Position numbers and translations under genes: made by a program. Of a stretch of 14,843 nucleotides of DNA, positions 1 through 14,843 are shown piece after piece. Each line of letters opens with the position of its first letter. The stretch's first letter is position 1. Source of the DNA: Promethearchaeota archaeon (GTDB taxonomy: Archaea > Asgardarchaeota > Lokiarchaeia > Sigyniarchaeales > SOKP01); contig JBHLME010000112.1 in assembly GCA_048938445.1 (NCBI GenBank), forward strand, positions 1-14,843, read 5' to 3'. The notes below the pieces were generated by a model that did no database searches, was not told the origin of the DNA, and saw only the letters and a list, made by a program, of their open reading frames with translations.

Positions 1-2
1 GA

Positions 3-827
3 TTTTTACCAAAATGGGGAGATAATTCTTATTTACTACAACTCCTTGAAATGATGATTCATCGTGAAGGAATTGGTAATATTTTTGCTGATGGCGTGCA
101 GATCGCTTCTGAAAAGATACCGGGTTCAAAAGAATATGCCATTCACGCAAATGGTCAAGAGGTTCCAATGCATGATTCAAGACAGGATCCCACGTTAGCC
201 TTAACCTATATAGCTGATCCAACACCTGGACGACATACAGCTGCCTCACTTTGTATAGATGGAATTGGTGTGAAATACTTTCTTGAGGGATTAGGTACTT
301 TTAAAGTTAATGATGAAAATGATTTGGGAAAATATCAAGCTAAAATAGCGAAATTTAAACAAACAATAGAAGCGACTGGTACATGTATCATTTCTCTCAA
401 TATGGGTGTTTTTCCATATTTAGAAATTATTCAAGCTATGACTGGATGGGATGTTTCAATTGGTGAGTTATTGGACACAGGGCATAGAATCCAAACCCTT
501 CGTCAAATGTTTAATGCTCGTGAGGGGGCAATTCGCCATTATATCCCCCAACGGGCAATTGGTTCCCCTCCTTTAATTAAAGGTCCATTAAAAGATAAAA
601 CTTACGATGTAGAAACTCTTGCTCAAGATTATTACGAAGCAATGGGATATGAGAAAAACGGAGTTCCGAAAAAAGAAACTCTAGAGCTCTTGAACCTAAA
701 TTTTGCTGTGTCAGATTTAGCTATTGCCAAAGGGATACCCGAAACCTTGGAAAATGAATATATAAAATCACAAATTAAAAAAAAATTCAATAAACCTACT
801 AAACTAAAGCCATTAAGCGGGGGTTAG
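3..827 (+). CDS. Aldehyde:ferredoxin oxidoreductase (tungstopterin AOR family), C-terminal part; 5'-truncated by the window edge
   Basis: Frame is open from base 3 (FLPKWGDNSYLLQLLEMMIHREGIGNIFADG). AOR-type motifs: WGD…REG.G..LADG, GQEVPMHDSR, PGRH, TGWD…GHRI..LR.MFN.REG, DYY..MG….G.P..ETL..L.L. Confidence 0.9.
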   Translation, partial: FLPKWGDNSYLLQLLEMMIHREGIGNIFADGVQIASEKIPGSKEYAIHANGQEVPMHDSRQDPTLALTYIADPTPGRHTAASLCIDGIGVKYFLEGLGTFKVNDENDLGKYQAKIAKFKQTIEATGTCIISLNMGVFPYLEIIQAMTGWDVSIGELLDTGHRIQTLRQMFNAREGAIRHYIPQRAIGSPPLIKGPLKDKTYDVETLAQDYYEAMGYEKNGVPKKETLELLNLNFAVSDLAIAKGIPETLENEYIKSQIKKKFNKPTKLKPLSGG

Positions 828-835
828 TTTTTTTA
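828..835 (+). terminator. Oligo-T tract, candidate archaeal intrinsic terminator
   Basis: Run of 8 T directly after the AOR TAG stop. T runs are common in this AT-rich sequence. Confidence 0.4.
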
Positions 836-998
836 TGATTTATTTAAATTATCTTAAATTAATCCGAATCTATAAAATATAAGTTTGTACAGCTAGGGAC
901 TACAAAAAAAACCTATAATTCTTGAAAATCCATTTTAATAATCTTAAATATTTTCCATCTTTTTAAAAAATTAGAGAAAAAAAAATTGGTGTTATCGA

Positions 999-1958
999 AT
1001 TCACGAATTTACTAAGGATCTTCAAGACTCTGGAAGCGCTATAGGGATTGCAATTGACAAGGTAGGGATTGTTAATGTTGAAAAAAAGGTAGAAATCATC
1101 CAAGAAGACAAGCATTATTCATTTTATCCCAAAATTTCCGCTTTAATCTCCCTTCCTGCCCAACAACGTGGAATTCATATGAGTAGAAGCTCTGAAACAA
1201 TTGAAGAAGTGATCAATGAAATTGTTTTTAAACCAGCTTCGACAATTGAAATCGTAGCAGATAGACTAGTGAAAAGACTGCTTGAAAGGCATCCTTATAC
1301 TTCAAATGTTGAAGTTAAATTGAAAGGTAAATTAATCATACAATCAAGGGAAAGTGGAATGAGTCACCGTAGTTATCAAAAAGCTTATGATGTAAGTTCA
1401 TTTGCAAAAGCTAGTAAAATTGAATCAGGAGAAATTGATTTTAATTACTTTATTGGGGCAACAGCAACTGGAATGACATGCTGTCCTTGTGCTCTCGGAA
1501 TGAGTAAAGAATACGCAGAACAGATTATAAATACAAGAAAAGACATTAACATTTCTGAAGATGATATAAAGAAATTACTCAATATTTTACCATTTTCATC
1601 ACATAATCAAAGATCGATGGGTACGATAATCTTACAAATAAAGGATTTGAGTGATCATGAAATTGACGTTTTTGATATCATTGACATCATCGAAGAAAGC
1701 ATGAGCGGGCGAATACAATCTGTATTAAAAAGACCTGAGGAAGCAGAATTAGTGCGGACAGCTCATTTAAAACCACTTTTCGCAGAAGATGTTATTCGTG
1801 AAATGGCAAAAAATTTTATAATCAAGGATTTTAAAAACTTAGAGGAAGATTTTAAAGTTATTTTTAAAATCGAGAGTTTTGAATCTATACATCCTCATAA
1901 TGTCTATTCTGAATTAAAGACAACAATAGGAGAATTGAAAGCTAAAATAAATCTTTAA
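999..1958 (+). CDS. mptA: GTP cyclohydrolase MptA (GCH IV; FolE2/GCYH-IB family). True start lies upstream of the ORF-track Met at 1179, probably ATT at 999
   Basis: Motifs RGIHMSR, GMTCCPCA, SHNQRS, LKRPEE, FAEDVIREM, ESIHPHN. The same frame upstream of 1179 reads DLQDSGSAIGIAIDKVGIVNVEKKV…SLPAQQRGIH, matching the family N-terminus. In-frame stop at 972-974; GGTG at 988-991. Confidence 0.9.
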   Translation: MHEFTKDLQDSGSAIGIAIDKVGIVNVEKKVEIIQEDKHYSFYPKISALISLPAQQRGIHMSRSSETIEEVINEIVFKPASTIEIVADRLVKRLLERHPYTSNVEVKLKGKLIIQSRESGMSHRSYQKAYDVSSFAKASKIESGEIDFNYFIGATATGMTCCPCALGMSKEYAEQIINTRKDINISEDDIKKLLNILPFSSHNQRSMGTIILQIKDLSDHEIDVFDIIDIIEESMSGRIQSVLKRPEEAELVRTAHLKPLFAEDVIREMAKNFIIKDFKNLEEDFKVIFKIESFESIHPHNVYSELKTTIGELKAKINL

Positions 1959-2005
1959 ATCCCTCCTTATGTTTAAATAAATAACCATAATAATTTTGAT
2001 TAATT

Positions 2006-3115
2006 TTAAGTAATATTATTTATTTTAAAATCTTTCAATGATTCTAAGACATTCTCAACAATCAGTCTATTTTTGTCTGCTACATTTATATCCTTAAATT
2101 GATTAAAATCAACACCATTTGGAAAATAACAGCAAACTATTGTATCATGAATGGATTTTTTATCAATAAAAGAACCAGGATCATAACCTACAACTTTAAA
2201 AGAATGTTTTAGTGCGATCTCTTGTGAATTGAGACCTTGTAAGGTTGTGGGAATTCTCCACTCAATTACATTCCAATCGCTATATCTTTTTAATATATCT
2301 TTTAAATTTTGTTGATTTAAATAACCTTGAATTATAATAATAGACTTATAATGATCTTCTTCTATAGAATAGCTGTTAAATGTTAGATTTGAAGATTTAT
2401 GAAGTAATATGGTATCTTTATTCATCCTTCTTATGTTTTCCTTGATGAGATTATAAAATTTTAATATATTTTCATTATCTAAAAGAACTATATTTCTGTC
2501 CCTGAGTTTCCAAAAATTCTTTATTGGAGAAAAATACATCACGACTGATTCAATCCTTCCAGATGTGAAAGATTTTTGGTTACTTGCTTTAAAATTTCTT
2601 TTATCTCCATAATTATTATAGTTAGGAATGAATCCATACGGAATGCATCGAATTTTTTCTGCAAATTTTTGTGAATGTAGATTATTTGCTCTTACATCAG
2701 TATCAAGTCGTATCACATCTTGTAATTTAGGATCTGATAAAAAACTAAGCACGCTTTGGGTTCCTAAAACTCTTGCAATTCCATAATTTTGATATTTATT
2801 TAAAATTACTGTCTTACTTGCACAAACAGATATTTTACTCTTTCTTAACATGACCCCTGTACCAACAATCTCATTTGATTTAATGTTTTCAACAACAAAC
2901 CATGTTTGATTTATATCATTAATTTCATTTATAAGTTGTTCGGGATCATACACTTTTGGATAAAGATAATTCCAACCATAAATATCTTTAAAAATTTCAC
3001 CAATTTGTCCAGCGTCTTCAGGAATTCCATACCTAAAACCGAATTCGAGATCATTTTTAGATTTAAAAGTGAATAGATATTTTTCCTTCTGACTAATAAT
3101 TGTTTGGTTTGACAT
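2006..3115 (-). CDS. GNAT-fold N-acetyltransferase-like protein with a C-terminal domain of unknown function
   Basis: 369 aa ORF. FRYG.PEDA..I..IF…Y, WFVVE…EIVG, acetyl-CoA-binding-like VILNKYQNYGIAR, N..SQKFAEK. Substrate unknown. Confidence 0.65.
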   Translation of the reverse strand: MSNQTIISQKEKYLFTFKSKNDLEFGFRYGIPEDAGQIGEIFKDIYGWNYLYPKVYDPEQLINEINDINQTWFVVENIKSNEIVGTGVMLRKSKISVCASKTVILNKYQNYGIARVLGTQSVLSFLSDPKLQDVIRLDTDVRANNLHSQKFAEKIRCIPYGFIPNYNNYGDKRNFKASNQKSFTSGRIESVVMYFSPIKNFWKLRDRNIVLLDNENILKFYNLIKENIRRMNKDTILLHKSSNLTFNSYSIEEDHYKSIIIIQGYLNQQNLKDILKRYSDWNVIEWRIPTTLQGLNSQEIALKHSFKVVGYDPGSFIDKKSIHDTIVCCYFPNGVDFNQFKDINVADKNRLIVENVLESLKDFKINNIT

Positions 3116-3470
3116 GTAAATTTCACTAAGTAATTAATTTATCACAATATTTTGTCTGTTAATATCCTACTATTTATTATGTAAATAAGTTATTGAATAT
3201 AAATTCAATGTATGAAAAATACATCTTACAATTTAGAGTTAAAAAATCTTTATTTTTTCCCTGAATTATTTGTATTTAAATTTGACAGGAATAATTATAA
3301 ATATGCTTGACAAGTAAAGGAATTTTTTAGATATTTATAATTAATCTAAAATTAATTAAAAAAAAGGGAATTTATTGTTTTTTAGCATACTATTTTTAAC
3401 CTTTTTATACTTGTTAGACAAATATTGAAATTATACTTTTTAATAAAAAATTAGATTTCCATAAATGTGA

Positions 3471-3896
3471 ATGAAAATGGTAGATGAAAAGATTTTAGCA
3501 TCCATATCTAAAATAATTGATGAAGGACCAAAAAATAATGATGATTTCCTTAAAATTTTCGAATATATTAAAGAAATCTCAATTGAAGACGCTAATATTA
3601 AGAAAAAAATTGAAAATCTAGATATTTCGGTACAATTAATCATACCTGACAGCACGGGAAAATTTTGGCTCACTTTTAAAGAGGGAAAAATGGATTATGG
3701 GGTAGGACAAATATATGAACCTAGTTGTACCGCAGAATTACCTACTTCAATATTAGCAAGTTTAATCCAAGGTGAGATAGATGGCCCCTCTGCGTATATG
3801 GCAGGGAAAATAGATTTAAAAGGAAATGTTGCTGATTGGACGGATATAAGGGAAATTTTAATAGAAACTATATCTCTTTTAGATGACCTAATCTGA
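3471..3896 (+). CDS. SCP2 sterol/lipid-binding domain protein
   Basis: Motifs GKFWL.FKEGKMDYGVG, PSCT.EL, GEIDG.SAYMAGKIDLKGN typical of the SCP2 fold. Start could be ATG 3471 or 3477. Confidence 0.85.
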   Translation: MKMVDEKILASISKIIDEGPKNNDDFLKIFEYIKEISIEDANIKKKIENLDISVQLIIPDSTGKFWLTFKEGKMDYGVGQIYEPSCTAELPTSILASLIQGEIDGPSAYMAGKIDLKGNVADWTDIREILIETISLLDDLI

Positions 3897-4037
3897 GCAC
3901 TTATTATTTTTATTTTTTTCTGCCAGAATTAAAATTATTATAAATAAATGATCAAATATTAATCAAGAAATCTTATTTTTATCTCCATATTATTTATAGT
4001 TAATTGTATATGATAATTTTACTAAAGGAAAAAAAGC

Positions 4038-4598
4038 ATGCCTGCTGTAGAAATCAAGTTTGATGATATCTATTTTAACCCAAAAGTTCAAACAATGTGT
4101 ATTTCATCAAACTTACATTGTCCTTTTTACAATCATTCACATTCCTGTCCTCCCGTAGCACCTTATCTAGAAGAGGAGGTCTCAAGCTATAAAAACTTTT
4201 TTCTCATTTATTCTATTTTTGATTTAGAATCCCAAGTAAAGAAGATGAAAGTAAAACATCCTAAAAGAAGTGAATATCGAATAAACCTAGAATTACAAAT
4301 GGAATATACTTTAAATGACGATTTGGAAAAAGAATTTGAGAAATTTTTAGAGGAATATAAAGATGATTACAATGAAAAGTTGCTATTGTATGCTGGTACT
4401 TGCAGGATCTGTTTTAATGAGAAAGATAAGAAGTGCACTTTCGATGACGGTATTCCATGCCGTTATCCGAATAGAATGAGATATTCAATGGAAGCTATTG
4501 GGATTGAAGTAATTAGGACAGTGATTGATTTAAATCTCGACATTGAATATCCTTCGAATAAAAAAGCTTATCGATTTGGCTTAGCTTGCTTTAAATAA
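4038..4598 (+). CDS. DUF2284-family predicted metal-binding protein
   Basis: Cys pattern C…CPFY…SCPP, GTCRIC…C…CRYP..MRYSMEAIGI; AAAGGA upstream of the ATG. Confidence 0.85.
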   Translation: MPAVEIKFDDIYFNPKVQTMCISSNLHCPFYNHSHSCPPVAPYLEEEVSSYKNFFLIYSIFDLESQVKKMKVKHPKRSEYRINLELQMEYTLNDDLEKEFEKFLEEYKDDYNEKLLLYAGTCRICFNEKDKKCTFDDGIPCRYPNRMRYSMEAIGIEVIRTVIDLNLDIEYPSNKKAYRFGLACFK

Positions 4599-4621
4599 GT
4601 GAATTTAATCATTTAATTGTT

Positions 4622-5773
4622 TTATTTAGAAAACATCTTAATCACTTTCATGTATTCTTTTATAGGTATTATCTTCGGATTTCTTATGTATCTAATGGGA
4701 AGAGGAGCATCACATCGAGAGCATAAACTAGAATTTTTTGTCCAATCCTTGAACTCATCGGCATGTGCAGGATATCTACACTCAGGACATATTATGATAC
4801 CTCTACCATTATCCTCCGGATATTTAGGTAATTCGAAACAGAAAATGCATTTAAAATCTTCCTTAGTTAAATTGACTCCTTTTGGTTTTAATTTCGCATA
4901 ATTAGTTTGTGGTTTATTTTTTTGAGTTCTTGGAGTTGCTTTTACTCTAGAAGGTTTTGCTTTAGTTTGCTTTGACCGGTTAGAAGCAGTTGTAGGTCTT
5001 GATGTCCTTCGAGTTGTAGTGCTTTGAGATCTTGATGTTGAAGATCTAGTTCTTGGAGTGGGTACGGTGTTATATTGTTGTCTTCTTGTAACGGGTCTAT
5101 TTTGAGGTCTAACATTTTCATTAATATTCCGTGTACGTGCTGTTATATAATCTTCTGTTATTTGGGGTAATGAAGATCTTTTTCCAAAAATTCCTGGATA
5201 GATCATTAATAATACTATAATAACCAGACTTATTATAAGGATGAGATCAAATGAATAATTAATTGGATTTAATAGAGTTTGAACCTGAGTAAAATAATTA
5301 AAGAAATAAATCCAATACCCTACTATGACAAATATTGTAGAAAATCCAATAAAGAATCCAAATGCTCGAGCACCTACAGATTTTGTTCCGAAATAAACTG
5401 AAATGTATTTTCTAAACATGTAATATAACGAGAAGAGGCTATAAAGTAAGTAAGGAAAACCAAAAAGAATACTCCACAAATTTAGAGATACATTTGAAGC
5501 TCCTAATAGGTTAACTCCTAATAATCCCGTATAATTACTCCAAACAGTAAATAATATACCTATAAATAATGGAAGAAGTATAAAAAAAGCCGTGTTATGG
5601 GGTGAATGATATTCACGATGTTGTTTTATTTTTTTAAAAAACTTAAGAGTAAATATAATCCAGATCCCGATCATGATCCATGAGATTAAGATATTAAAAG
5701 AGGATGCAATAAAAACTCCGTGGATAATCCCTATGATTAAACTTATTATTAAAATAATTACATTCCACATCAA
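4622..5773 (-). CDS. Multi-pass (about 6 TM) membrane protein with a basic S/T/R-rich linker and a C-terminal variant RING finger; putative membrane E3 ligase
   Basis: Six hydrophobic segments in the first ~195 aa, then a low-complexity linker, then C309-x2-C-x16-C-x2-C-x4-H-x2-E-x3-W-x6-C-x2-C354. Co-oriented downstream of E2 and JAMM. AGGAGTGA RBS at 5780-5787; start TTG 5773 or ATG 5770. Confidence 0.75.
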   Translation of the reverse strand: MMWNVIILIISLIIGIIHGVFIASSFNILISWIMIGIWIIFTLKFFKKIKQHREYHSPHNTAFFILLPLFIGILFTVWSNYTGLLGVNLLGASNVSLNLWSILFGFPYLLYSLFSLYYMFRKYISVYFGTKSVGARAFGFFIGFSTIFVIVGYWIYFFNYFTQVQTLLNPINYSFDLILIISLVIIVLLMIYPGIFGKRSSLPQITEDYITARTRNINENVRPQNRPVTRRQQYNTVPTPRTRSSTSRSQSTTTRRTSRPTTASNRSKQTKAKPSRVKATPRTQKNKPQTNYAKLKPKGVNLTKEDFKCIFCFELPKYPEDNGRGIIICPECRYPAHADEFKDWTKNSSLCSRCDAPLPIRYIRNPKIIPIKEYMKVIKMFSK

Positions 5774-5896
5774 ATTATTTCACTCCTAGATGTAATAATA
5801 AAAATAAGGATAAAAAAATTTAATGATTATCAATTCTTGTCCAATTTCTATTAATAAATAGAGGCTTTTTTATCATCGAATTAGATTAAAAAGTAA

Positions 5897-6724
5897 TCAG
5901 GAATCCTCATCATATTCCAAATACGCGGCTTTACCTTCAATTATGGGATTCATGAAGTTTAGAATGTCAGGAAGCATGCGGACATCTATAGCACCTCGAA
6001 TATTATAAGGAACTGAAAACCACCTCCTTGTTTGTAAATTTGCTCTATATATTTCAAAACCCAAGGATGTACCGTCAATTTGATAAGGATCAACAACAAG
6101 AGCAACCGCTTTTTTCCAAAGTTTTTGATATCTTGCTTGAGTACCCATATCTTCATTACTCATAAAAAGACCATATGAAGGATGGCTATGGTACCACCCA
6201 CAAATAAATAAATCATTTTTCTTGATATCTTTCCAAGCTTTCACGTAATTTTTATAATCCTTTATTTCAGCATAAACCGCATTACCATGACCCATTGGAT
6301 AAGCATCTTCTACAAGGAGGATAGAATCATTATTTTCTAATTTACCTGCAAGGAGTCCAATTACTTCAACCCATTGAGATCTTGGAATTTTAGAATGGGC
6401 ATATTTCAGTGCATGACTGGCGATCTTTAAAATTGCTTTAACAGTGATTTCTGTCTTCATTTTAGGCTTTTTCTTTTGTATCGGATATTTCTCATAGTCC
6501 GGAGTAATATATTCTTCTTTCTGTTTTTGCTCATGATTAATATATTCTTCAACAATTTGTTCCGCGACTACTTCGGGTTCTTCGGGTTTTTTATATTTTT
6601 TTTTATCCTTTTCTTCTGCTTTCAATTCTTCATATATTTCCTCAAGAAGTTCACGTTTTAGCCTTATTTTTTCCATTTTCTTCTTAATCGCTTCCGCTTC
6701 ATTTAATAAATCATCGTAGCTCAT
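5897..6724 (-). CDS. JAMM/MPN+ (Mov34, Rpn11/CSN5-like) metalloisopeptidase with an N-terminal charged coiled-coil extension
   Basis: Intact JAMM motif: E120 (EVIGLLAG), H179-S-H181-x7-S189-x2-D192 (GWYHSHPSYGLFMSNED), followed by ALVVDP. Confidence 0.95.
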   Translation of the reverse strand: MSYDDLLNEAEAIKKKMEKIRLKRELLEEIYEELKAEEKDKKKYKKPEEPEVVAEQIVEEYINHEQKQKEEYITPDYEKYPIQKKKPKMKTEITVKAILKIASHALKYAHSKIPRSQWVEVIGLLAGKLENNDSILLVEDAYPMGHGNAVYAEIKDYKNYVKAWKDIKKNDLFICGWYHSHPSYGLFMSNEDMGTQARYQKLWKKAVALVVDPYQIDGTSLGFEIYRANLQTRRWFSVPYNIRGAIDVRMLPDILNFMNPIIEGKAAYLEYDEDS

Positions 6725-6732
6725 CTAAAGAT

Positions 6733-6737
6733 TCACC
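6733..6737 (-). promoter_or_regulatory. GGTGA ribosome-binding site for the JAMM gene, overlapping the E2 stop codon (translational coupling)
   Basis: Minus strand reads TGG TGA ATCTTTAG ATG: the E2 stop lies within GGTGA, 8 nt before the JAMM ATG. Confidence 0.6.
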
Positions 6738-7260
6738 ACTTTTTATTAGCATATTTTTTCACGAGATGTTTTACTTTTTTCTCGTAAGTACTTGGATTAT
6801 TAATCATTTCTAATGCTGCTTTTTTGTTAAAAACATCTGTAGGATTGATATATTTACCTCGAGTATTGAACATGGCAATAATTGCTTGAATAACAGTTGT
6901 AATTGTTTTTGATGGGCTCCATCCTCCCTTCTTACCAATCAAGCTAGGATCTACGAGTGCCAAGCAAATATTACGCTGACCTTTATATTCTTGAGGCTTA
7001 GGCCAAAAATTTGGATGCCAAATTGGTGTATGCAGGCGCACAAATGGAGGTTTACTAGGATATTCTGGAGGAAACTGGACTTCAAGACGAAATAATCCTC
7101 CCTGAAATGCCGTACCATTTGGACCTTTTAACGTGATAGCAAGATGGTCTATAGCCTTGCTTTTTGGATTGAATGGCTTTAATTGTTCAATTTTACCATC
7201 CTTTAACATTTTTTTTAATCTCGAAAATTCTTGCGATACTCTACTATTTCTCGCGCTCAT
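6733..7260 (-). CDS. Ubiquitin-conjugating enzyme E2 (UBC fold)
   Basis: GP.GT.FQGG.F.L.V.FP.EYP.KPP.V.L.TPIWHPN, active-site ICL (Cys99), WSPS.TI..V..AI, NP.D.FN..AA. Confidence 0.96.
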   Translation of the reverse strand: MSARNSRVSQEFSRLKKMLKDGKIEQLKPFNPKSKAIDHLAITLKGPNGTAFQGGLFRLEVQFPPEYPSKPPFVRLHTPIWHPNFWPKPQEYKGQRNICLALVDPSLIGKKGGWSPSKTITTVIQAIIAMFNTRGKYINPTDVFNKKAALEMINNPSTYEKKVKHLVKKYANKKW

Positions 7261-7576
7261 AAAATCATATCTATTTTTTTTATTTTAATATAATAATATA
7301 AAGAAATTATTATAAAGTAATTTGGAATAATTTTGAAGTATTTTATAATTGCTTAAATCCAAAAAATAATGATTCTAAAGATATTATTATTGATTAAAGT
7401 CAATGATTTTTTATGTTTTTTTATTGTAATTATCCAATGAGTTAAATTTAGGATAATCCATAATTATATTATTTAATATTAAAATTATATACTTAATCAC
7501 ATATATTAGTTCGATAATCGACTAAGATATGATATTTTCAAATATAATAATTAATTTTTGGGAGATAAAGAAATAT

Positions 7577-7583
7577 GAGGTGA
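7577..7583 (+). promoter_or_regulatory. GAGGTGA Shine-Dalgarno site upstream of the LRR gene
   Basis: Strong archaeal SD match 6 nt before an in-frame ATA at 7590. Confidence 0.55.
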
Positions 7584-7589
7584 ATTACT

Positions 7590-8405
7590 ATAACTGAGGA
7601 GATTATTACCTATAGGAATAGTAAATTGCTAAAATCTGAAGTTGATATAATTAAGGAAATAGAGGAGGAACTTGGAATAGAATCGACATCTAGACCAGAT
7701 GCTTTTGATCTATTCGTCCCTTTACAATTTATTGCTGAAGATTATCGAATAAAGCATATCACTCTACATAAGTATCCATTTTCCTCATTCCCTGAAGCCA
7801 TAACTAAGCTTATTTATCTTGAAACCTTGAATTTTACTTCTACGGAATTAGAAAATCTTCCTAAATCGATTGGATACCTTAAAAATCTTAAAATTTTAGC
7901 GATAGACAATGGTAAATTATCAGATCTTCCCAATTCTTTAAAAAAGATTGATTCGATCACAACCTTAATGCTTCAAAATAATAATTTTACTCACATACCA
8001 GAAGTAATTACCGAATTAGAATCACTTGTATATTTATATCTTTCAGGTAATCAGTTAACATCGCTTCCTGAAAATATAGGGAAGCTTAAATCTCTTAAAG
8101 AATTAAATCTTAGTTGGAATAAACTTTCAAGTCTTCCTTCCTCAATAGGAAATCTTTCTTCACTTGAAAATTTAACTTTATCAAAAAATCAATTATCTGA
8201 GATACCTGATTCAATAGGTAAACTTGCTTCTCTTAAAGAAATATGGATTCATGAAAATATTTTAGAATCTTTACCCGAATCAATAGTAAATATAAAATCC
8301 CTTAAGAGTTTGCAAATAGATGGTAATCCAATTCACGATAAAACAAGTTCTAAAGTCAAGATTATATTAGAGAAACTCAAGAATATGGGTGTTGAGCTCG
8401 ATTAG
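7590..8405 (+). CDS. Leucine-rich repeat protein (about 8-9 repeats of 23 aa); ORF track starts it at TTG 7626, probable start ATA 7590
   Basis: Repeats of LxxLxxLxLxxNxLxxLPxxIGx, e.g. LKSLKELNLSWNKLSSLPSSIGN and LSSLENLTLSKNQLSEIPDSIGK; ends with a GNP cap and a short helix. No catalytic domain visible. Confidence 0.93.
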   Translation: MTEEIITYRNSKLLKSEVDIIKEIEEELGIESTSRPDAFDLFVPLQFIAEDYRIKHITLHKYPFSSFPEAITKLIYLETLNFTSTELENLPKSIGYLKNLKILAIDNGKLSDLPNSLKKIDSITTLMLQNNNFTHIPEVITELESLVYLYLSGNQLTSLPENIGKLKSLKELNLSWNKLSSLPSSIGNLSSLENLTLSKNQLSEIPDSIGKLASLKEIWIHENILESLPESIVNIKSLKSLQIDGNPIHDKTSSKVKIILEKLKNMGVELD

Positions 8406-8418
8406 AAACAAAAACTAA

Positions 8419-9642
8419 TCAATTAATTCTTAAAGTTAATAAAATCTCACCTTTTTTAAATCCTGCAACGGTAATGAGCTCTAGATCTCTTAATCCATTT
8501 TTTTTAATTGACTGTTCCAGATCAATCTCCTTTATATCGTTGAAATCAATTGTTGTCAGGATTGGTACCATTTCTGGATCAAGGTCATGACCTCGATCTA
8601 CTAGGGCATCAACAAGTTTTTGGCAAGGTTCATTACGACTTGTATGAATATCTTCGCGTACGACCTGCTCTCCACATTGAGTGCAATTAATTCTTCTTTT
8701 TTTTTCAATCGAATAAAATTTCATGGTCATTCCATTGAAAACTGTATAAGTTCTAATTGGTTCTCCTAAAGCATTATTTCCACGCAACCAATGAAGTATT
8801 TTAATGGTTTCATGTGATTGAATCGCAGATATAATAGCATTTATGGTAATAATTCCTGGATCATGCCTATCTATTATTTTTATTATATCTGCTTTGGAAA
8901 AGGGGGGTGGAAAATTATGTTTTTCTGATAAATCATTAGCTATTTTTTGTATGAACTCAATATCCTTGATTTTTGTTGGATCTGGATCTTTCTTGAATTT
9001 ATCCTGAAATGCCATATTTCCCTTAAAAACACAATGTACTCTCTTGCGTGGAATTCCAACTACCGTGCAAGCTGCCATATCATCATCTTCAACAGAAGGT
9101 AAAGGATTGCATTCAAAACATGCATTCTCATATGGAAAGATGGTATAAAAATGTCCATGATAACCTGAGACACCTCCATCTATCAAGGGCTTCTTAAAAC
9201 GCACGGCTTGGGCGTTTAAATTAAGTCTTGCATTCATCGAATCTAATCCACCAATGATTACATCTGCAGCATTATAGATTGCTGGATCAAGACGTTCTAA
9301 GGACGTGCTATACCCTTCAATGGTGATATTTGGATTGATCTTCCTTAACATTTTTGCAGCAGCAAGTGCTTTTGGTTGTCCCATTTTGGCATCAATAAAT
9401 AATATTTGACGATTTAGGTTTGAGTGTTCGATCACGTCTAAATCAACCAAATCGAGATGTCCAACACCCAACATCGCTAAATTTTTAGCTATTTCACACC
9501 CTAGACCGCCTACACCTGCAATTAACACTCTTGAATTTTTTACAATTGACTGAGACCATCCTTCAAGTCTAAACTGTCGATTGTATAATTCTCTCTCTTT
9601 TGCGGTTAAATCCTCACTAAAAAAATCAGAATCATTTTCCAA
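8419..9642 (-). CDS. Ubiquitin-like activating enzyme E1 (ThiF/MoeB adenylation domain, Uba3/Uba2-type catalytic Cys insert, probable C-terminal ubiquitin-fold domain)
   Basis: YNRQ.RL, GVGGLG nucleotide loop, D.D.IE.SNLNRQ, GLDS..AR, Zn pairs CFEC and CTQC, catalytic-like ACTVVGIPRKRVHC (Cys192), PGIITINAIISA. TTG start with GGTGA at 9648-9652. Confidence 0.95.
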   Translation of the reverse strand: MENDSDFFSEDLTAKERELYNRQFRLEGWSQSIVKNSRVLIAGVGGLGCEIAKNLAMLGVGHLDLVDLDVIEHSNLNRQILFIDAKMGQPKALAAAKMLRKINPNITIEGYSTSLERLDPAIYNAADVIIGGLDSMNARLNLNAQAVRFKKPLIDGGVSGYHGHFYTIFPYENACFECNPLPSVEDDDMAACTVVGIPRKRVHCVFKGNMAFQDKFKKDPDPTKIKDIEFIQKIANDLSEKHNFPPPFSKADIIKIIDRHDPGIITINAIISAIQSHETIKILHWLRGNNALGEPIRTYTVFNGMTMKFYSIEKKRRINCTQCGEQVVREDIHTSRNEPCQKLVDALVDRGHDLDPEMVPILTTIDFNDIKEIDLEQSIKKNGLRDLELITVAGFKKGEILLTLRIN

Positions 9643-9724
9643 TTATATCACCATTCATAATTATTATGTTAAAAAATAAAAAAACATTGAAAGTAAAAAT
9701 AACTTTCATTTTTAATTTATACCT

Positions 9725-10072
9725 TTAAAAAATTCCTGCGGTACTTGCAGGGATTAGAAGAACATCATCTCCATCAGCAACGCCATAATCGCTTAATGGA
9801 TTGCTTTCATCCATAGTAACACCACCATGTGATAAGTGAAAGTCATTAGGATTCAAACCAAAGATATTTCCAACAGTCTTCTTTACATCGCCTACCATAT
9901 TTCCATCATTAACGGTAAGTTTTTGTTTCTTTTCTCCAGGACCGATTGTAGACATGAAAAAAACAGAAATTTTTCTTCCTCCTGAGGGAATCTTGGATGC
10001 AGGAGTTTTTGAACTGATTGGTTCAGGCTCTTCTAATTCTTCTAGTTCTTCATCAAATTCTTCAAAACTCAT
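9725..10072 (-). CDS. Ubiquitin-like modifier A (beta-grasp), acidic N-terminal tail, C-terminus IPASTAG-IF (precursor form)
   Basis: Ubiquitin-like pattern V.D.K..V…F.L…G..MD…LSDYGV.DGD.V.L; immediately upstream of E1 on the same strand; AGGAG RBS at 10081-10085. Confidence 0.9.
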   Translation of the reverse strand: MSFEEFDEELEELEEPEPISSKTPASKIPSGGRKISVFFMSTIGPGEKKQKLTVNDGNMVGDVKKTVGNIFGLNPNDFHLSHGGVTMDESNPLSDYGVADGDDVLLIPASTAGIF

Positions 10073-10223
10073 GTAAATCTCTCCTTTTTTTTTTAATTTT
10101 CAATATACTTTTTTAATAAAATGACATCAAAATGATATTATAAAACCCTCTGGAAAGAAAGTGAAGTTTTTTCGGGAACTAATATTTTAAGTGATGATTA
10201 ATGAAATGTTTAAATACGGATCT

Positions 10224-10259
10224 TATATATAAAGGAGAAGCATATTAATATATATAAAG
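10224..10259. promoter_or_regulatory. Two copies of TATATATAAAG; candidate TATA boxes in the divergent modifier A/wHTH intergenic region
   Basis: Identical 11-mers at 10224-10234 and 10249-10259; they read CTTTATATATA on the minus strand, which fits an archaeal TATA box. Confidence 0.4.
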
Positions 10260-10332
10260 AATTTTAATTTGTCTTAGAGAGATAATAGAAAAGAAATAAC
10301 TGAAGAAATTAACTTAATAAAAGTATATTTAA

Positions 10333-11007
10333 ATGGATTCTACGAATAATATAGATTCTGTCGTGTTAGACTTAATAAAGGAATATTTATCCAAAAAAAC
10401 GTTCTTTTCAATAAAAGATCTTATTGATTATATAAATAATAGGGTAAAGATGAATCCCTACATAAATAGAAACAGAATCGAACTTGTCATTAAATCCTTA
10501 ATTAAAAAGAAAGAAATCATTCCAGGTACCAAGTTAATGAAAAATAATATAATAGACAATCAAACTAGAAAAAAAATATTTAATTATATAAAAAAAAATC
10601 CTGCAATAAACATCAATGAAATAATGAAACATCAAGAAATTGGAAGTAATCAAGCATTATGGCACTTATCAGCATTGGAGAAATTTCAATTTATCCGGTC
10701 AAAGAAGATTGGAAACCGTAGGATTTTTTTTATAATTGGCTCAAATCCGGAATTTGATGACATATATTATTACTTAAAGATGGAAATTGTCAATGAAATA
10801 ATTAAATTCATGGACAAAAATAAAAAAGCTCTAAAAATAACTGATATTGCTGATGGTTTAAAAAAAAACCACAATGTTATTAAAAAGTACCTAAATATTT
10901 TGGATGAACTCAATTTATTAGAAATAGAAAAAGAAAAATCTAGAGATACCTATAAAATAGATCAAGAAAGATATTCAGAAGTGATTAAACTTGTCAGTAA
11001 AAAATAA
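10333..11007 (+). CDS. Tandem winged helix-turn-helix transcriptional regulator
   Basis: N.TRKKIFNYIKKNP.I.INEI…WHLS.LEKF.FI.S.KIGN and a second HTH, LKITDIADGLKKNHNVIKKYL..L.EL.LL; a third wHTH-like segment is possible at the N-terminus. Confidence 0.85.
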   Translation: MDSTNNIDSVVLDLIKEYLSKKTFFSIKDLIDYINNRVKMNPYINRNRIELVIKSLIKKKEIIPGTKLMKNNIIDNQTRKKIFNYIKKNPAININEIMKHQEIGSNQALWHLSALEKFQFIRSKKIGNRRIFFIIGSNPEFDDIYYYLKMEIVNEIIKFMDKNKKALKITDIADGLKKNHNVIKKYLNILDELNLLEIEKEKSRDTYKIDQERYSEVIKLVSKK

Positions 11008-11063
11008 ACATGAACACTTCAAGTTTATGCCAATGGAATTTAAATTATTAATTAAACATATGT

Positions 11064-11900
11064 ATGTTGATAAAAAAATTGTTTAAAATTATGGAAAAAA
11101 AGTATAAAATTATAAGCGTTATAACAGTTTATGTTATATCAATCATCGTGTATGTTCTGTTTTTCTCACAGTTCATTCCTTACCTTAATTTGATTGTCAT
11201 AGGTAGTTTAACTGTGATCTCTACTGGTACTTTATATGCCATAATTCATGAATCAAACAACCAATATAAGAGAGAAAAGAAACTTAAAGTCTTAAAGCAA
11301 ACTAAATTAGAACTTGAAAAGTCAAGCGAATTTACAAAGAAATCTATTCAAGAATCGCCAGAGGTAATTGGAGAATATCTTGAAGCCTTTCCTTATATCG
11401 AAGACTATGTTGAATCTGATGTAACATATGAACAAGTTCCAATTATAAATGAGATCATCTTTTCAGACTTAAATCAAGAAGTATTGAAAAAGATTAATTT
11501 GTTAAATTTATCACAAATAGAAAAACTCCAATTTATTAGGGAACTTCTATATTATGAACCGGAAGAAAGAGATAATTTGATTGAAAACATGTTAGAAAAT
11601 CGAGACAAAATAGATGAGGATGTTATTTATTCAGTACCTTTAAAAACTCTTGAATTAGCAGATAAATTCAGGGTACATGTAATATCATTAGTAGAACCAG
11701 GAGAAAAGAAGAAAATAATAATTATTGAATCACTTGATATGATTATTGAAATAAAGAAAAAGGTTGGAGTTTTATTTGATTATAATCTAGAAGATTTTCA
11801 TCTAACTACGGGGGGTATAATGTTAGATGAAACTCTTCAAATAAAAGATTATTTTATCGAAGATGATGATGAGATTGTTCTAATTCCCATCCGTAAATAA
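11064..11900 (+). CDS. Membrane protein (2 N-terminal TM helices, helical middle) with a C-terminal ubiquitin-like domain paralogous to the two free modifiers but lacking the terminal Gly
   Basis: Hydrophobic IISVITVYVISIIVYVLFF and LIVIGSLTVISTGTLYAII; C-terminal PGEKK…IKKKVG.LF….EDFHL..GG..LDE…DY.I.D.D.I.LIPIRK. Start may be ATG 11091. Confidence 0.85.
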   Translation: MLIKKLFKIMEKKYKIISVITVYVISIIVYVLFFSQFIPYLNLIVIGSLTVISTGTLYAIIHESNNQYKREKKLKVLKQTKLELEKSSEFTKKSIQESPEVIGEYLEAFPYIEDYVESDVTYEQVPIINEIIFSDLNQEVLKKINLLNLSQIEKLQFIRELLYYEPEERDNLIENMLENRDKIDEDVIYSVPLKTLELADKFRVHVISLVEPGEKKKIIIIESLDMIIEIKKKVGVLFDYNLEDFHLTTGGIMLDETLQIKDYFIEDDDEIVLIPIRK

Positions 11901-11919
11901 ATTAAATGAATTAAGAGAT

Positions 11920-12261
11920 CTATCCTGCAATACTAGCAGGAATTAATAAAATATCATCACCATCTTTAACATTATATTCTATTAGAGGATTATTTTCATC
12001 CATTGTAATCCCACCGTGCGATAAATGAAAATCTAATGGATTCAATGCAAATAAATTACCAACTGTTTGCTTAATATCTTCAACTAGATTACCAGTATAA
12101 ACTACTAATTTATGCTTTTTTTCACCAGGTCCTATTGTTGACATGAAATAAAGTGCAATTTTTTTTCCTTCGTTGGTAGGAACTTTAGATTTTAATCCTT
12201 CTGATTCATCATGTTCCAGATCTTCATCAAGATCTTCATCAAATTCATCATCAAAATCCAC
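11920..12261 (-). CDS. Ubiquitin-like modifier B, acidic N-terminal tail, C-terminus IPASIAG-stop (mature form)
   Basis: 59 of 82 residues identical to modifier A over the folded domain (manual count). GTG start preceded by AGGATGTGA. Confidence 0.9.
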   Translation of the reverse strand: MDFDDEFDEDLDEDLEHDESEGLKSKVPTNEGKKIALYFMSTIGPGEKKHKLVVYTGNLVEDIKQTVGNLFALNPLDFHLSHGGITMDENNPLIEYNVKDGDDILLIPASIAG

Positions 12262-12457
12262 GTTTTATTCACATCCTTTAATTATAAGTTATTAGATTCA
12301 TGTGATTATTAGCTATAATATAAATAAGACTAAAAGTATATAAATAAATTCCATGCTTAAATTATTCTTCAATATTATGCCAAATGGTTTTTTTTAAGAT
12401 TAAAAAGATTTAATCTTTAGATGATAAAATTAATCAAATATTTTTGTGATATATTAA

Positions 12458-13657
12458 ATGATGAAGGATAAAATACCTCCTAAGTCTCAAATTCAAGAGA
12501 AGATTCCCAAAGAACAGTTAGAACAAATTCATGATAAGAAACTGTTAAAAAAAATCAAAGAAGAAAGAATGAAACTTAGTAAAGAAAAGGAAAATTGGGA
12601 AAAAGTTATAAAAAAAATGGAGGATTATCAAGGAAATATTAGGGATCTTGAAAAAAAAAGGAAAGAAAGAGAAATTGAAATTAGAGCACTTCTAGAGCAA
12701 CGTGATACTTTAAAAGATCAGTTATCAAGAACCCAAAAAAGTATAGAAGGCCAAAAGAAACGAATTGAAGATGAAAAGAGGCAATATATAAATACACTTC
12801 GTGAAAAAAATTATGAATTGGATCAGAAAAATACTGAATTAGAAAAATACAAACAAGAATTATTACGACTTAGAGAAGATATACAAAACGAAAAACAAAC
12901 TTTAGATATAGAAAAGGAAAAAGCTAAATCTCGTATTAAAGAAATTAAAACAAAAATTCCTGGGATGGAACGTAGGGAGGATTTGCTAAAGGATAATATT
13001 AGTACTTTAGAAAAAAAATTAAATGGATTAAAAAGGGATTATAGAGATCTTAAAAATGAAAAAGCTAACTTAATTAAAGATATAAATGACATGAAACAAA
13101 AAATTGCTGAAGAAGCATACAGGTTAAATGACCAAAAACGAAAGATCGAAGAACAAAAAAAAAGATTAAAATATAAAGACGACGATTTGGCACGAAAAGC
13201 ACATGATATCGAAAAGAAAAAGGATAAATTAGATAGAATAAAAGATAAGACTCAAAAAGACGTTCGAGACTTAGAAAAAGAGAAACAAAATTATCAATCT
13301 CAATTATCTAATTTAAAAAAAAAATTACCTCAATTAGAAGATAAAAAGTATGATTTAGAAAGCAAGAGAAGTATGCTAGAAGATGATATTAAAAGATTAA
13401 ATAATGAATACAAGGATTTAGATAATCAATTAAAAAAGATTGAAAATAAAACTAGAAATGAAGAGAAAGATTTAGAAAGAGAAAGAAGGCTAATTCAAGA
13501 TGAAAAAAATAAAATAAGGAAAGAAAGAGAAAAATTAGATAAAGATAGGCGAGCATTTGAAAAAGAAAAAAGAGAATTTCAAGAAATGGTTAGAAAAACA
13601 TTAAAATCTAAACAACCACCAAAGCAACAAATAAAATTTAAAACTCCTTCAAAATAG
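12458..13657 (+). CDS. Long coiled-coil protein of unknown function with an internal 123-aa repeat
   Basis: 399 aa, K/E/R/Q-rich heptads throughout, short Pro-containing head and tail, no ATPase motif or TM segment. Confidence 0.8.
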   Translation: MMKDKIPPKSQIQEKIPKEQLEQIHDKKLLKKIKEERMKLSKEKENWEKVIKKMEDYQGNIRDLEKKRKEREIEIRALLEQRDTLKDQLSRTQKSIEGQKKRIEDEKRQYINTLREKNYELDQKNTELEKYKQELLRLREDIQNEKQTLDIEKEKAKSRIKEIKTKIPGMERREDLLKDNISTLEKKLNGLKRDYRDLKNEKANLIKDINDMKQKIAEEAYRLNDQKRKIEEQKKRLKYKDDDLARKAHDIEKKKDKLDRIKDKTQKDVRDLEKEKQNYQSQLSNLKKKLPQLEDKKYDLESKRSMLEDDIKRLNNEYKDLDNQLKKIENKTRNEEKDLERERRLIQDEKNKIRKEREKLDKDRRAFEKEKREFQEMVRKTLKSKQPPKQQIKFKTPSK

Positions 13658-13666
13658 TAACTTCTT

Positions 13667-14722
13667 GTGAGCATTTCTAAAATTGATTTTATTAAAGGTA
13701 TTGAAGGAGATTATGTAGAGACAAAAAAAAACCATCTCTTTTTTGATATTAAAGGCGTTCATCATCCAAAAGATAGGAAAATTTGTTTTATACGATTTCA
13801 TCCCGATCCACTTGGCGATCGAGAAAAAAATGGAATAAAATATAAAAAAATATATGATTTGCGTGAAAGATATTCTTATTTGAAAAGAGAATATCCCGAA
13901 TATTTATTCTATTCCGAACAATTAGATTTGGAGTTACAAGGAGTAAAAAATGAAGATATTTTAAAAATTTATACTCCACGAGATTATTATGCGGAATTAC
14001 TTAAAAAATCCGACTTGTCCCGATTGGAAAAATGTTCTCTTGAATTATGTGAACTTTTTATTTCTGATGGAAATCTCCCAAAAGGATCTATTGGAATCAC
14101 CGGATCTCCAATGATTGGATTAAATAAAGAGATTTCGGATATAGATATAATGATCTATGGTACTGAAACGAGTTTAGATTTTCAAAAATCCCTTTCAGAA
14201 ATAATAAAGGATAGTAACAATTTTTGTAGGGAATATGCACTACAAGAATATCAAGTACATTATGATTGGAGAGTCGGAGGTTCAGATATACCTTTCGATA
14301 AATTTCTTCAATGTGAAAGGAGAAAACTCCACCAAGGTATGTATAAAGGTTTCGAATTTTTTATAAGATACTTAAAAAGTCCGAAAGACTGGCAAGGTGG
14401 GTATTATGATTATAAATATAAAAATCTTGGAAGGATTAAAATTAGAGCTAATATTTTGGACTCCACTGATTCCATATTTACACCTTGTTCGTATGAAATT
14501 GAAGTCTCTAAAATTTTAGAAAATGAGTCAAGTAAAAAAAATATTAAAAAGCAAGAAATCCTTAAAGTAAACTCGTTTAGAGGTAGATTTTGTGAACACG
14601 CTATAAAAGGAGAAGATGTAATAATTGAAGGAAAATTGGAGCGCGTTCTTTATAAAAATACTGAGAAATATTATCGTATTTTATTAAGCGATCAAGCTCG
14701 CGATAAAATGATACGTGCTTGA
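13667..14722 (+). CDS. Archaeal predicted nucleotidyltransferase (Pol-beta superfamily, COG1665-like)
   Basis: IGITGS..IGL….SDIDI.IYG catalytic signature; N-terminal EGD.VET…F.IKG..HP…F.R; C-terminal SFRGRFCE.A..GE.V..EGKLE. GTG start 9 nt after the coiled-coil stop. Confidence 0.8.
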   Translation: MSISKIDFIKGIEGDYVETKKNHLFFDIKGVHHPKDRKICFIRFHPDPLGDREKNGIKYKKIYDLRERYSYLKREYPEYLFYSEQLDLELQGVKNEDILKIYTPRDYYAELLKKSDLSRLEKCSLELCELFISDGNLPKGSIGITGSPMIGLNKEISDIDIMIYGTETSLDFQKSLSEIIKDSNNFCREYALQEYQVHYDWRVGGSDIPFDKFLQCERRKLHQGMYKGFEFFIRYLKSPKDWQGGYYDYKYKNLGRIKIRANILDSTDSIFTPCSYEIEVSKILENESSKKNIKKQEILKVNSFRGRFCEHAIKGEDVIIEGKLERVLYKNTEKYYRILLSDQARDKMIRA

Positions 14723-14724
14723 TA

Positions 14725-14732
14725 TTTTTTTT
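14725..14732 (+). terminator. Oligo-T tract, candidate terminator
   Basis: T8 beginning 3 nt after the TGA stop of the last gene. Confidence 0.35.
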
Positions 14733-14843
14733 AAAAAAATCTTTAATTAAACTTCATATGTTTACCAGATAAATTAAAATAGATATCGATAAAATTTATT
14801 AAATAATCTTAAAAAAAATAGAAAAAAATAAGAGTGAATCATA

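Follow-up and report, generated by a model that had tools for sequence, protein, structure and literature searches.

A Ubiquitin-Type Locus with Two Paralogous Modifiers

For the origin of eukaryotic ubiquitylation, the ubiquitin systems of Asgard archaea offer the closest prokaryotic models, and one such system is encoded in the stretch of Promethearchaeota DNA analyzed here (contig JBHLME010000112.1, positions 1 to 14,843), the whole of which, 14,843 nucleotides with 29% G+C, is called the window. Two paralogous genes for ubiquitin-like (Ubl) proteins, A and B, were found on its minus strand. Paralogue A (9725–10072) is an open reading frame of 115 amino acids (aa) that ends in Ala112-Gly113-Ile114-Phe115, while paralogue B (11920–12261) encodes 113 aa from a GTG start and ends at Ala112-Gly113, directly before a TAG stop (11920–11922). 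Their homologues were named Promethearchaeota or Lokiarchaeia by the source databases. For this genome, the inference that A requires trimming and that B is made mature is well supported. Moreover, we consider it probable that the two extra residues of A represent a labile propeptide, and that the difference between a pro-form and a mature form is not a conserved division of labor between the paralogues.

The enzymes expected of such a system lie on the same strand as A, in the order RING-like membrane protein, JAMM, E2, E1, and Ubl A by increasing coordinate. The E1-like activating enzyme with a ThiF fold (8419–9642, 407 aa; PF00899, E 5.2e-57) lies 82 bases downstream of A, and it is followed by the E2-like conjugating enzyme with a UBC fold (6733–7260, 175 aa; PF00179, E 3e-25) and by an Rpn11-like JAMM/MPN+ metalloprotease (5897–6724, 275 aa; PF01398, E 1.4e-12), the candidate trimming and deconjugating enzyme. 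The JAMM motif consists of Glu120, the catalytic glutamate already assumed in a first-pass annotation of this DNA, and of HSHPSYGLFMSNED from residue 179 (His179-x-His181-x7-Ser189-x2-Asp192), and the catalytic residues were invariant across 17 orthologues. The last gene of the series (4622–5773) encodes a membrane protein whose C-terminus is Cys-rich and RING-like, for which the Pfam search returned no family and which is presumed to be the E3 from its position and Cys pattern.

This arrangement was not peculiar to the window. The order RING-JAMM-E2-E1-UblA-wHTH-(membrane Ubl)-UblB-coiled coil, in which wHTH denotes a winged helix-turn-helix gene, was found repeatedly in relatives, the places of the RING-like and wHTH genes being conserved, and wherever a relative's locus contained both E1 and E2 (28 loci), E1 adjoined the Ubl in the A position. 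The components are the same as those of the Caldiarchaeum subterraneum operon (CsUb, E1-like, E2-like, small RING finger protein, and CsRpn11), and the set is complete here, with Pfam matches for Ubl, E1, E2, and JAMM and with the RING-like protein recognized by Cys pattern and position. These results support the identification of A and B as paralogous beta-grasp Ubl modifiers in an E1/E2/RING-type E3/JAMM locus, and the gene neighborhood predicts that they would be attached to lysines via E1 and E2.

Sequence and Fold of the Modifiers

We found A and B to be identical at 59 of the 82 residues that precede and include the terminal Ala-Gly (AG), or 72% of the fold, which reproduces the first-pass count exactly, and BLASTP aligned them with 62/89 identities (E 1e-46), far above chance similarity. 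Both were under purifying selection, with dN/dS values of 0.08 (A) and 0.065 (B) against the nearest relative, G004. Their codon ends also read as previously claimed. Read on the minus strand, the end of A is GCA GGA ATT TTT TAA (9739–9725), and that of B is GCA GGA TAG (11928–11920), behind which ATC TCT TAA (11919–11911) follows. Gly113 of A is therefore blocked by two residues in the encoded sequence, while Gly113 of B is free, and the Ile-Phe codons of A (ATT TTT, 9728–9733) are a putative propeptide by their place behind Gly113 and by the tails of the orthologues. The N-termini of both proteins aligned with those of homologues. At the start codon of B (12261), which is GTG here, contigs of the sequencing runs X2, X3, X4, and X7 carried T, giving ATG, and one of these four runs represented a near-identical strain.

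The best Pfam family for both proteins was ubiquitin (PF00240), for which A scored 26.5 bits, above the cut-off of 25.4, and B scored 23.8 bits, just below it. In the AlphaFold2 model of A, a disordered acidic N-terminal extension (residues 1–31) was followed by a beta-grasp domain (about 32–111), with a predicted local distance difference test (pLDDT) value of about 90 over residues 31–110, strands at 34–41, 48–55, 78–82, and 103–108, and a helix at 60–71. Confidence was low in the N-terminal 28 residues, and pLDDT fell below 50 at residues 113–115. The top Foldseek match was Caldiarchaeum ubiquitin (6fno_D, taken from its complex with Rpn11; E 4.6e-8), and Hub1, ISG15, and ubiquitin came next, all top matches having a probability of 1.00. 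Ubiquitin chains were retrieved from sequence too by the family profile.

A and B might instead be sulfur carriers of the MoaD/ThiS/SAMP type and not protein modifiers. JGI labels several homologues "molybdopterin converting factor small subunit," and PF02597 stands in the precomputed Pfam lists of two related tandem proteins (P0121 and P0271). Neither A nor B matched PF02597 at E up to 0.1, however, their best family and best fold matches are the ubiquitin-type ones given above, and the locus encodes an E2 together with a RING-like protein and a JAMM of the Rpn11 type, so that we regard sulfur carriage as very improbable.

The N-terminal extension, which was conserved and disordered in both modifiers (A residues 1–31, 9980–10072; B residues 1–30, 12170–12261), begins with an acidic MSFDEFDEDLE-like stretch followed by S-K-T-P-x-x-K, and Lys22 was invariant in 33 aligned sequences. 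It has no counterpart in ubiquitin and recalls the flexible N-terminus of SUMO, which bears a chain-forming lysine.

Conservation of the Ala-Gly End

The Ubl family comprised 907 homologues at E up to 0.001, and the gene was present in 119 of the 135 genomes of the taxonomic family. The C-termini of the best 120 of the 907 homologues were surveyed, and the larger of our trees was built from the same set. Nearly all of them (119) carried the AG end, and the remaining one had AR; lack of conservation of this end was one of the outcomes that the first-pass annotation had named as refuting its interpretation, and this outcome did not occur. The majority (79) stopped directly at AG, and 41 were tailed, by one residue (10), two (27), three (2), or four (2). 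These 41 tails comprised 28 different sequences and had no motif in common. Among the surveyed genomes the tails ranged from 0 to 6 residues, with up to 8 on one tandem form, while a search of representatives clustered at 50% identity showed the motif IP-x-S-x-AG to be kept in relatives as distant as about 40% identity. A and B thus do not end in the Gly-Gly by which Ubl modifiers are usually recognized but in Ala-Gly, the terminal Gly itself being retained, and Ala-Gly, not Gly-Gly, is the fixed and putatively reactive end of a large Asgard (Loki-type) family.

Tandem Ubl genes suggest that this end is a cleavage site. We found 12 protein clusters of this kind (P0121, P0122, and P0271–P0280), nine with two Ubl units and three with three, which belong to a sister clade that shares about 50% identity with A and lies outside the subfamily of A itself. 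At all 15 internal junctions, AG (14 STAG and 1 SQAG) was followed directly by the acidic N-terminus of the next unit, and the last unit was tailed in 11 of the 12 clusters. Such genes imply, as far as sequence can tell, that the chain is cut after AG. They resemble eukaryotic polyubiquitin genes, whose head-to-tail units are separated by cleavage behind the reactive Gly and whose final unit has a few extra residues.

The tandem forms, an archaeal counterpart of polyubiquitin genes, are known from these 12 metagenomic protein clusters, some on contigs of 26–170 kb, such as P0275 on one of 45 kb. When 400 genomes of the phylum were searched with the di-Ubl P0122, matches were obtained in 18 (17 of family f16 and 1 of f17), nearly all of them spanning a single repeat of the query, and no tandem gene was confirmed among them. 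A pair of separate genes was seen in genome G237 (L091, contig C23, 6086–7100), where E1 is adjoined by two Ubl genes in tandem, one with the tail YLV followed by one that is bare, and where B is tailed; the pair could be an intermediate towards fused tandem genes.

We consider three features of this system notable, namely, that its end is fixed as Ala-Gly, that the sister clade has tandem genes, and that the modifiers carry an additional N-terminal extension. A full-text literature search found no paper on an Ala-Gly end or on tandem Ubl genes in Asgard archaea, although supplementary alignments (e.g., those of PMC5654768 and PMC9192718) may already show such ends.

Gain and Loss of Tails in Relatives

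Whether the difference between A and B is conserved was read from two batches of relatives. The first consisted of 20 stretches, each around the best match of a genome, and tail state was not a criterion. Eight genomes had both positions. A was tailed and B bare in three of them, namely, this genome (G000, IF on A), G001 (AI) of the same genus, and G018 (KLI); both were tailed in two further genomes of the genus, the sister genome G004 (VF on A, KSP on B) and G005 (KV and YF); and both were bare in three (G006, G015, and G024). The A orthologues of the four genomes of the genus thus carry the tails IF, VF, KV, and AI. In the same batch, the E1-adjacent Ubl was tailed in 12 of 18 genomes, with that of G011, whose open reading frame holds a run of N, counted as bare. 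The second batch added 20 stretches, including six g2 genomes chosen because their alignment rows reached residue 115. The B copies of these six genomes and of G237 were all tailed (KYFV, LYFI, KINI, CYIERI, KYLL, LYLIKS, and KCIC). Over both batches, 15 genomes could be compared, of which 3 had A tailed and B bare, 9 had both tailed, 3 had both bare, and none had A bare and B tailed.

The trees pointed in the same direction. At least 6 changes of tail state were required on a tree built from 26 copies, and B of this genome was sister to the KSP-tailed B of G004 (SH-like approximate likelihood-ratio test, SH-aLRT, 93) within a genus-level B clade (94). On the FastTree phylogeny of the 120 homologues (41 tailed), at least 22 changes were required, compared with 29–35 in ten shuffles. 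These repeated changes, which also separate sister sequences from each other, indicate that the tail is close to unstructured in evolution.

A possible trace of such a change lies directly behind B. At the site where this genome has TAG ATC TCT TAA, G004 has AAG TCA CCC TAA (encoding KSP), G005 has TAT TTT TGA, and G001 has TAA. A single substitution would turn AAG or TAT into TAG, and the frame position of the real stop of G004 is matched by the second stop here. Since chance alone would place a stop in frame within three codons in about 21% of cases (about 0.077 stops per codon, from the composition of the window), this second stop is not significant alone. Comparison with G004 suggests that ATC TCT TAA (11911–11919, minus strand) may well be the relic, or the raw material, of a tail, and B probably acquired its bare end recently, when the first codon of the tail became a stop. 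In two contigs of run X7, position 11920 was T, which turns TAG into TAA and is still a stop, and this related strain had two compensating single-base indels just behind the stop, as expected of noncoding sequence. Readthrough of the TAG in B was considered and rejected, given the related strains with TAA there and the 79 of 120 homologues that stop at AG.

Upstream Regions and Other Ubiquitin-Type Sets

The upstream regions of A and B were separate, as the first-pass annotation had noted, and each was conserved within the genus. The region before A (10073–10332) is common to the divergent wHTH gene and contains a conserved block about 70–130 bases before the ATG in the four genomes; the region before B (12262–12457) is common to a divergent coiled-coil gene and contains an invariant TATTTATATA block together with other conserved blocks in the same four genomes. 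The two regions were unlike each other. The block before A (10140–10200) consists of an A-run and then CTT-A...TCTTTCCA, and that before B and the coiled-coil gene (12330–12400) of an A-run and then CC...TTGG. The wHTH protein, whose gene lies between A and B, could bind at these blocks.

The genome contains more than one set of ubiquitin-type enzymes. We found five ThiF-type genes and seven JAB-domain matches, along with three UBC-type matches that passed the cut-off. Besides the locus JAMM, four other distinct frames carried an intact zinc motif. Two further E1+E2 sets lie on contigs C5 and C176. That on C5 (L093, 113–3493) has an E2 and a 530-aa E1, and that on C176 (L094, 2267–4744) is a compact JAMM-E1-E2 set accompanied by a Ubl of 84 aa, in which VVGG directly precedes the stop. 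On contig C80 (L092, 1710–1964), an 84-aa Ubl ending GG-I is encoded beside a small GTPase gene. Since the Ubl of C176 is bare and that of C80 carries an Ile behind Gly-Gly, tailed and bare modifiers coexist more widely in the genome.

With several sets present, A and B might serve different enzymes or targets, the tail being incidental and the paralogues being kept for their divergent surfaces. Their sequences diverge at 23 of the 82 positions of the fold, and AG is preceded by Thr in A but by Ile in B; both are under purifying selection. The genome offers two further E1+E2 sets and six further JAB-domain matches that could act on one of them, and the B lineage is old, occurring in at least three genera and always beside the membrane Ubl-fusion and coiled-coil genes, not beside E1. 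On the other hand, the C176 set has its own Gly-Gly Ubl alongside and another Gly-Gly Ubl is found on C80, A and B keep the same loop and the IPAS.AG stretch that is modeled against JAMM, and in 11 relatives' loci they lie within about 2.2 kb of each other. Taken together, we judge a separation of enzyme sets or targets to be unlikely. By gene neighborhood, the candidate E1 and JAMM for A and B are the enzymes of the locus.

Cleavage after Ala-Gly and the Role of the Tail

Trimming of a tailed archaeal pro-ubiquitin is already known from Caldiarchaeum. The Caldiarchaeum Ubl has a C-terminal propeptide, which is removed precisely behind the terminal Gly by an Rpn11-like JAMM encoded beside the operon; the tailed form is refractory to E1, while the form cleaved by Rpn11 or truncated by a stop codon is active (PMC5654768; PMC6043591). 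CsUb ends in Gly-Gly, has a 9-residue tail, and is encoded by a single gene. The system described here differs in its Ala-Gly end, in its two free paralogues and membrane-bound Ubl, and in the acidic N-terminal extension of about 30 residues. A Helarchaeial (Asgard) operon with E1, E2, and a RING E3 likewise encodes a tailed ubiquitin (Ser-Pro-Lys-Asn) whose mature form works in vitro (bioRxiv 10.1101/2023.07.25.550441); there the end is Gly-Gly, and a paralogue pair is not described in the available portions of that report. In bacterial Bil operons (BilA Ubl, BilD E1, BilB E2, and BilC JAB), the JAB/JAMM protein of the operon exposes the terminal Gly, and the remnant of BilA conjugates is Ala-Gly, a precedent for the AG end (PMC10557695). 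Bil is a bacterial antiviral operon without a RING E3, and its likeness to the present locus is limited to the fold, the sequences being uncompared.

A complex of JAMM (residues 88–275) and A (30–115) was predicted. It scored 0.87 against 0.31 for the best of three controls, a mark reached by 58 of 80 solved complexes and by 2 of 110 mismatched pairs, although these counts are only rough because custom alignments were used. Runs agreed in at least 97% of contacts, the pLDDT of the partner was at least 90, and the predicted interface listed JAMM residues 120, 179, 181, and 189–192 and A residues 105–115, the AG-IF end included. Such a model speaks for likeness to known complexes, not for binding.

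Based on these results, we propose that A would be made as a pro-form in which Ile-Phe blocks the carboxylate of Gly113, and that a JAMM metalloprotease, most probably the one encoded at the locus, would cut it after AG before adenylation by E1; B would be made ending in AG and would require no trimming. The first-pass annotation had likewise held that A is gated by JAMM cleavage and B independent of the protease. This remains the best reading, given a Gly113 that is blocked in one paralogue and free in the other and given the Caldiarchaeum analogue, while the part that names the protease keeps the standing of a likely assignment. JAMM cutting after AG would always be present, for deconjugation and, in the sister clade, for cutting poly-Ubl precursors, so that short tails would cost little. 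They could then be gained and lost in both paralogues, in a nearly neutral manner, by single mutations that make or destroy a stop codon.

Several observations weigh against this proposal. All four A orthologues of the genus keep a two-residue tail, as might be expected if a tail on A were weakly selected for, and lability is a sign of weak constraint that does not imply the absence of any function. Because the six g2 genomes were chosen by alignments reaching residue 115, the counts for A are skewed to tailed copies, those for B being unselected. In the Caldiarchaeum assays reported in PMC6043591, the Gly77Ala mutant, which has an AG end, was processed by CsRpn11 much more slowly than Gly78Ala, so that cleavage after AG here would presume co-adapted enzymes. 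The high score of the predicted complex may reflect memory, since like complexes have already been solved (6fno and 6fnn), and with further JAB matches in the genome, the trimming enzyme could be another than the locus JAMM. Finally, a run search found no RNA runs covering 9600–12450, the four matching runs being DNA contigs.

Part of this evidence would also be expected if the tail were a selected design, in which entry of A depends on JAMM and B enters freely, giving two separately regulated inputs. The upstream regions differ and each is conserved in the genus, the tailed pro-form is inert to E1 in Caldiarchaeum, the two-residue tail stands on 4/4 A orthologues of the genus, and a bare A with a tailed B occurred in 0/15 genomes. 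In contrast, B was tailed in 9/15 genomes and in 2/4 of the same genus, the sister genome included, both paralogues were bare in 3/15, and the tails share no motif and are almost unstructured on the family tree. We therefore think it improbable that the tail was selected in this way. The earlier suggestion of differently regulated inputs to one cascade did not hold up either, as tail state is not tied to the paralogue and further E1, E2, and JAMM sets exist in the genome.

A narrower possibility is that the bare end of B was a recent adaptive step, with separate nonsense changes in G000 and G001 (G004 and G005 keep the tail) giving a pool of modifier free of the zinc protease. We think this improbable. 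If it were true, conjugation of B could continue under limiting JAMM activity while A stayed gated, and, along with the sister clade's tandem genes, it would imply that Asgard archaea were already tuning both precursor gating and a polyubiquitin-like gene architecture.

Under the proposal of a labile propeptide, precursor forms can arise without selection once the cutting enzyme exists, and such unselected turnover would be a simple route to the mixture found among eukaryotic Ubls, where ubiquitin, SUMO, NEDD8, ATG8, and UFM1 are made as precursors and ATG12, URM1, and FAT10 are encoded in mature form (PMC11354881). Eukaryotes differ in that their precursors are processed by cysteine-protease deubiquitinases, whereas only JAMM enzymes are evident here. 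Moreover, since Ala-Gly is fixed in this family and cripples Rpn11 processing in the one archaeal system tested, the family offers a natural case of co-adaptation between modifier end, protease, and E1.

Neighboring Genes and Larger Ubl Proteins

By increasing coordinate, A is followed by two genes on the plus strand. The first (10333–11007) encodes a double wHTH protein with matches to HTH_24, HTH_5, and the HVO_0163 N-terminal HTH, possibly a local regulator. The second (11064–11900) encodes a third, membrane-anchored Ubl paralogue with N-terminal membrane helices and a C-terminal Ubl domain (PF00240, E 0.0059) that is 38% identical to A (E 4.6e-15). B is convergent with this gene across a gap of 19 bases, and the coiled-coil gene and a nucleotidyltransferase-like gene lie beyond B. 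The membrane Ubl ends in IPIRK and cannot be conjugated, since it has no AG. Full-length orthologues also lacked AG in every case and always lay between the wHTH gene and B. The protein may be a membrane-bound docking or decoy Ubl.

Between E1 and E2, a leucine-rich-repeat gene lies on the opposite strand (7626–8405, plus). As it had no match in the 28 relatives' loci with E1 and E2, the gene is a genome-specific insertion.

One 534-aa protein (P0284), apparently a fusion of Ubl and E1, was not used, because its IPAS.AG end is lost and junk runs into E1, which looks like a frameshift or an assembly error. AG-type Ubl proteins of larger size, about 255–585 aa, were also found (L043, 3619–4401; L044, 12703–13470 and 13765–14658; L050, 9691–11448; and P0125–P0133). 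Their Ubl domain is mostly at the extreme C-terminus and ends in AG with or without a tail, and if E1 charges them, whole proteins would be conjugated.

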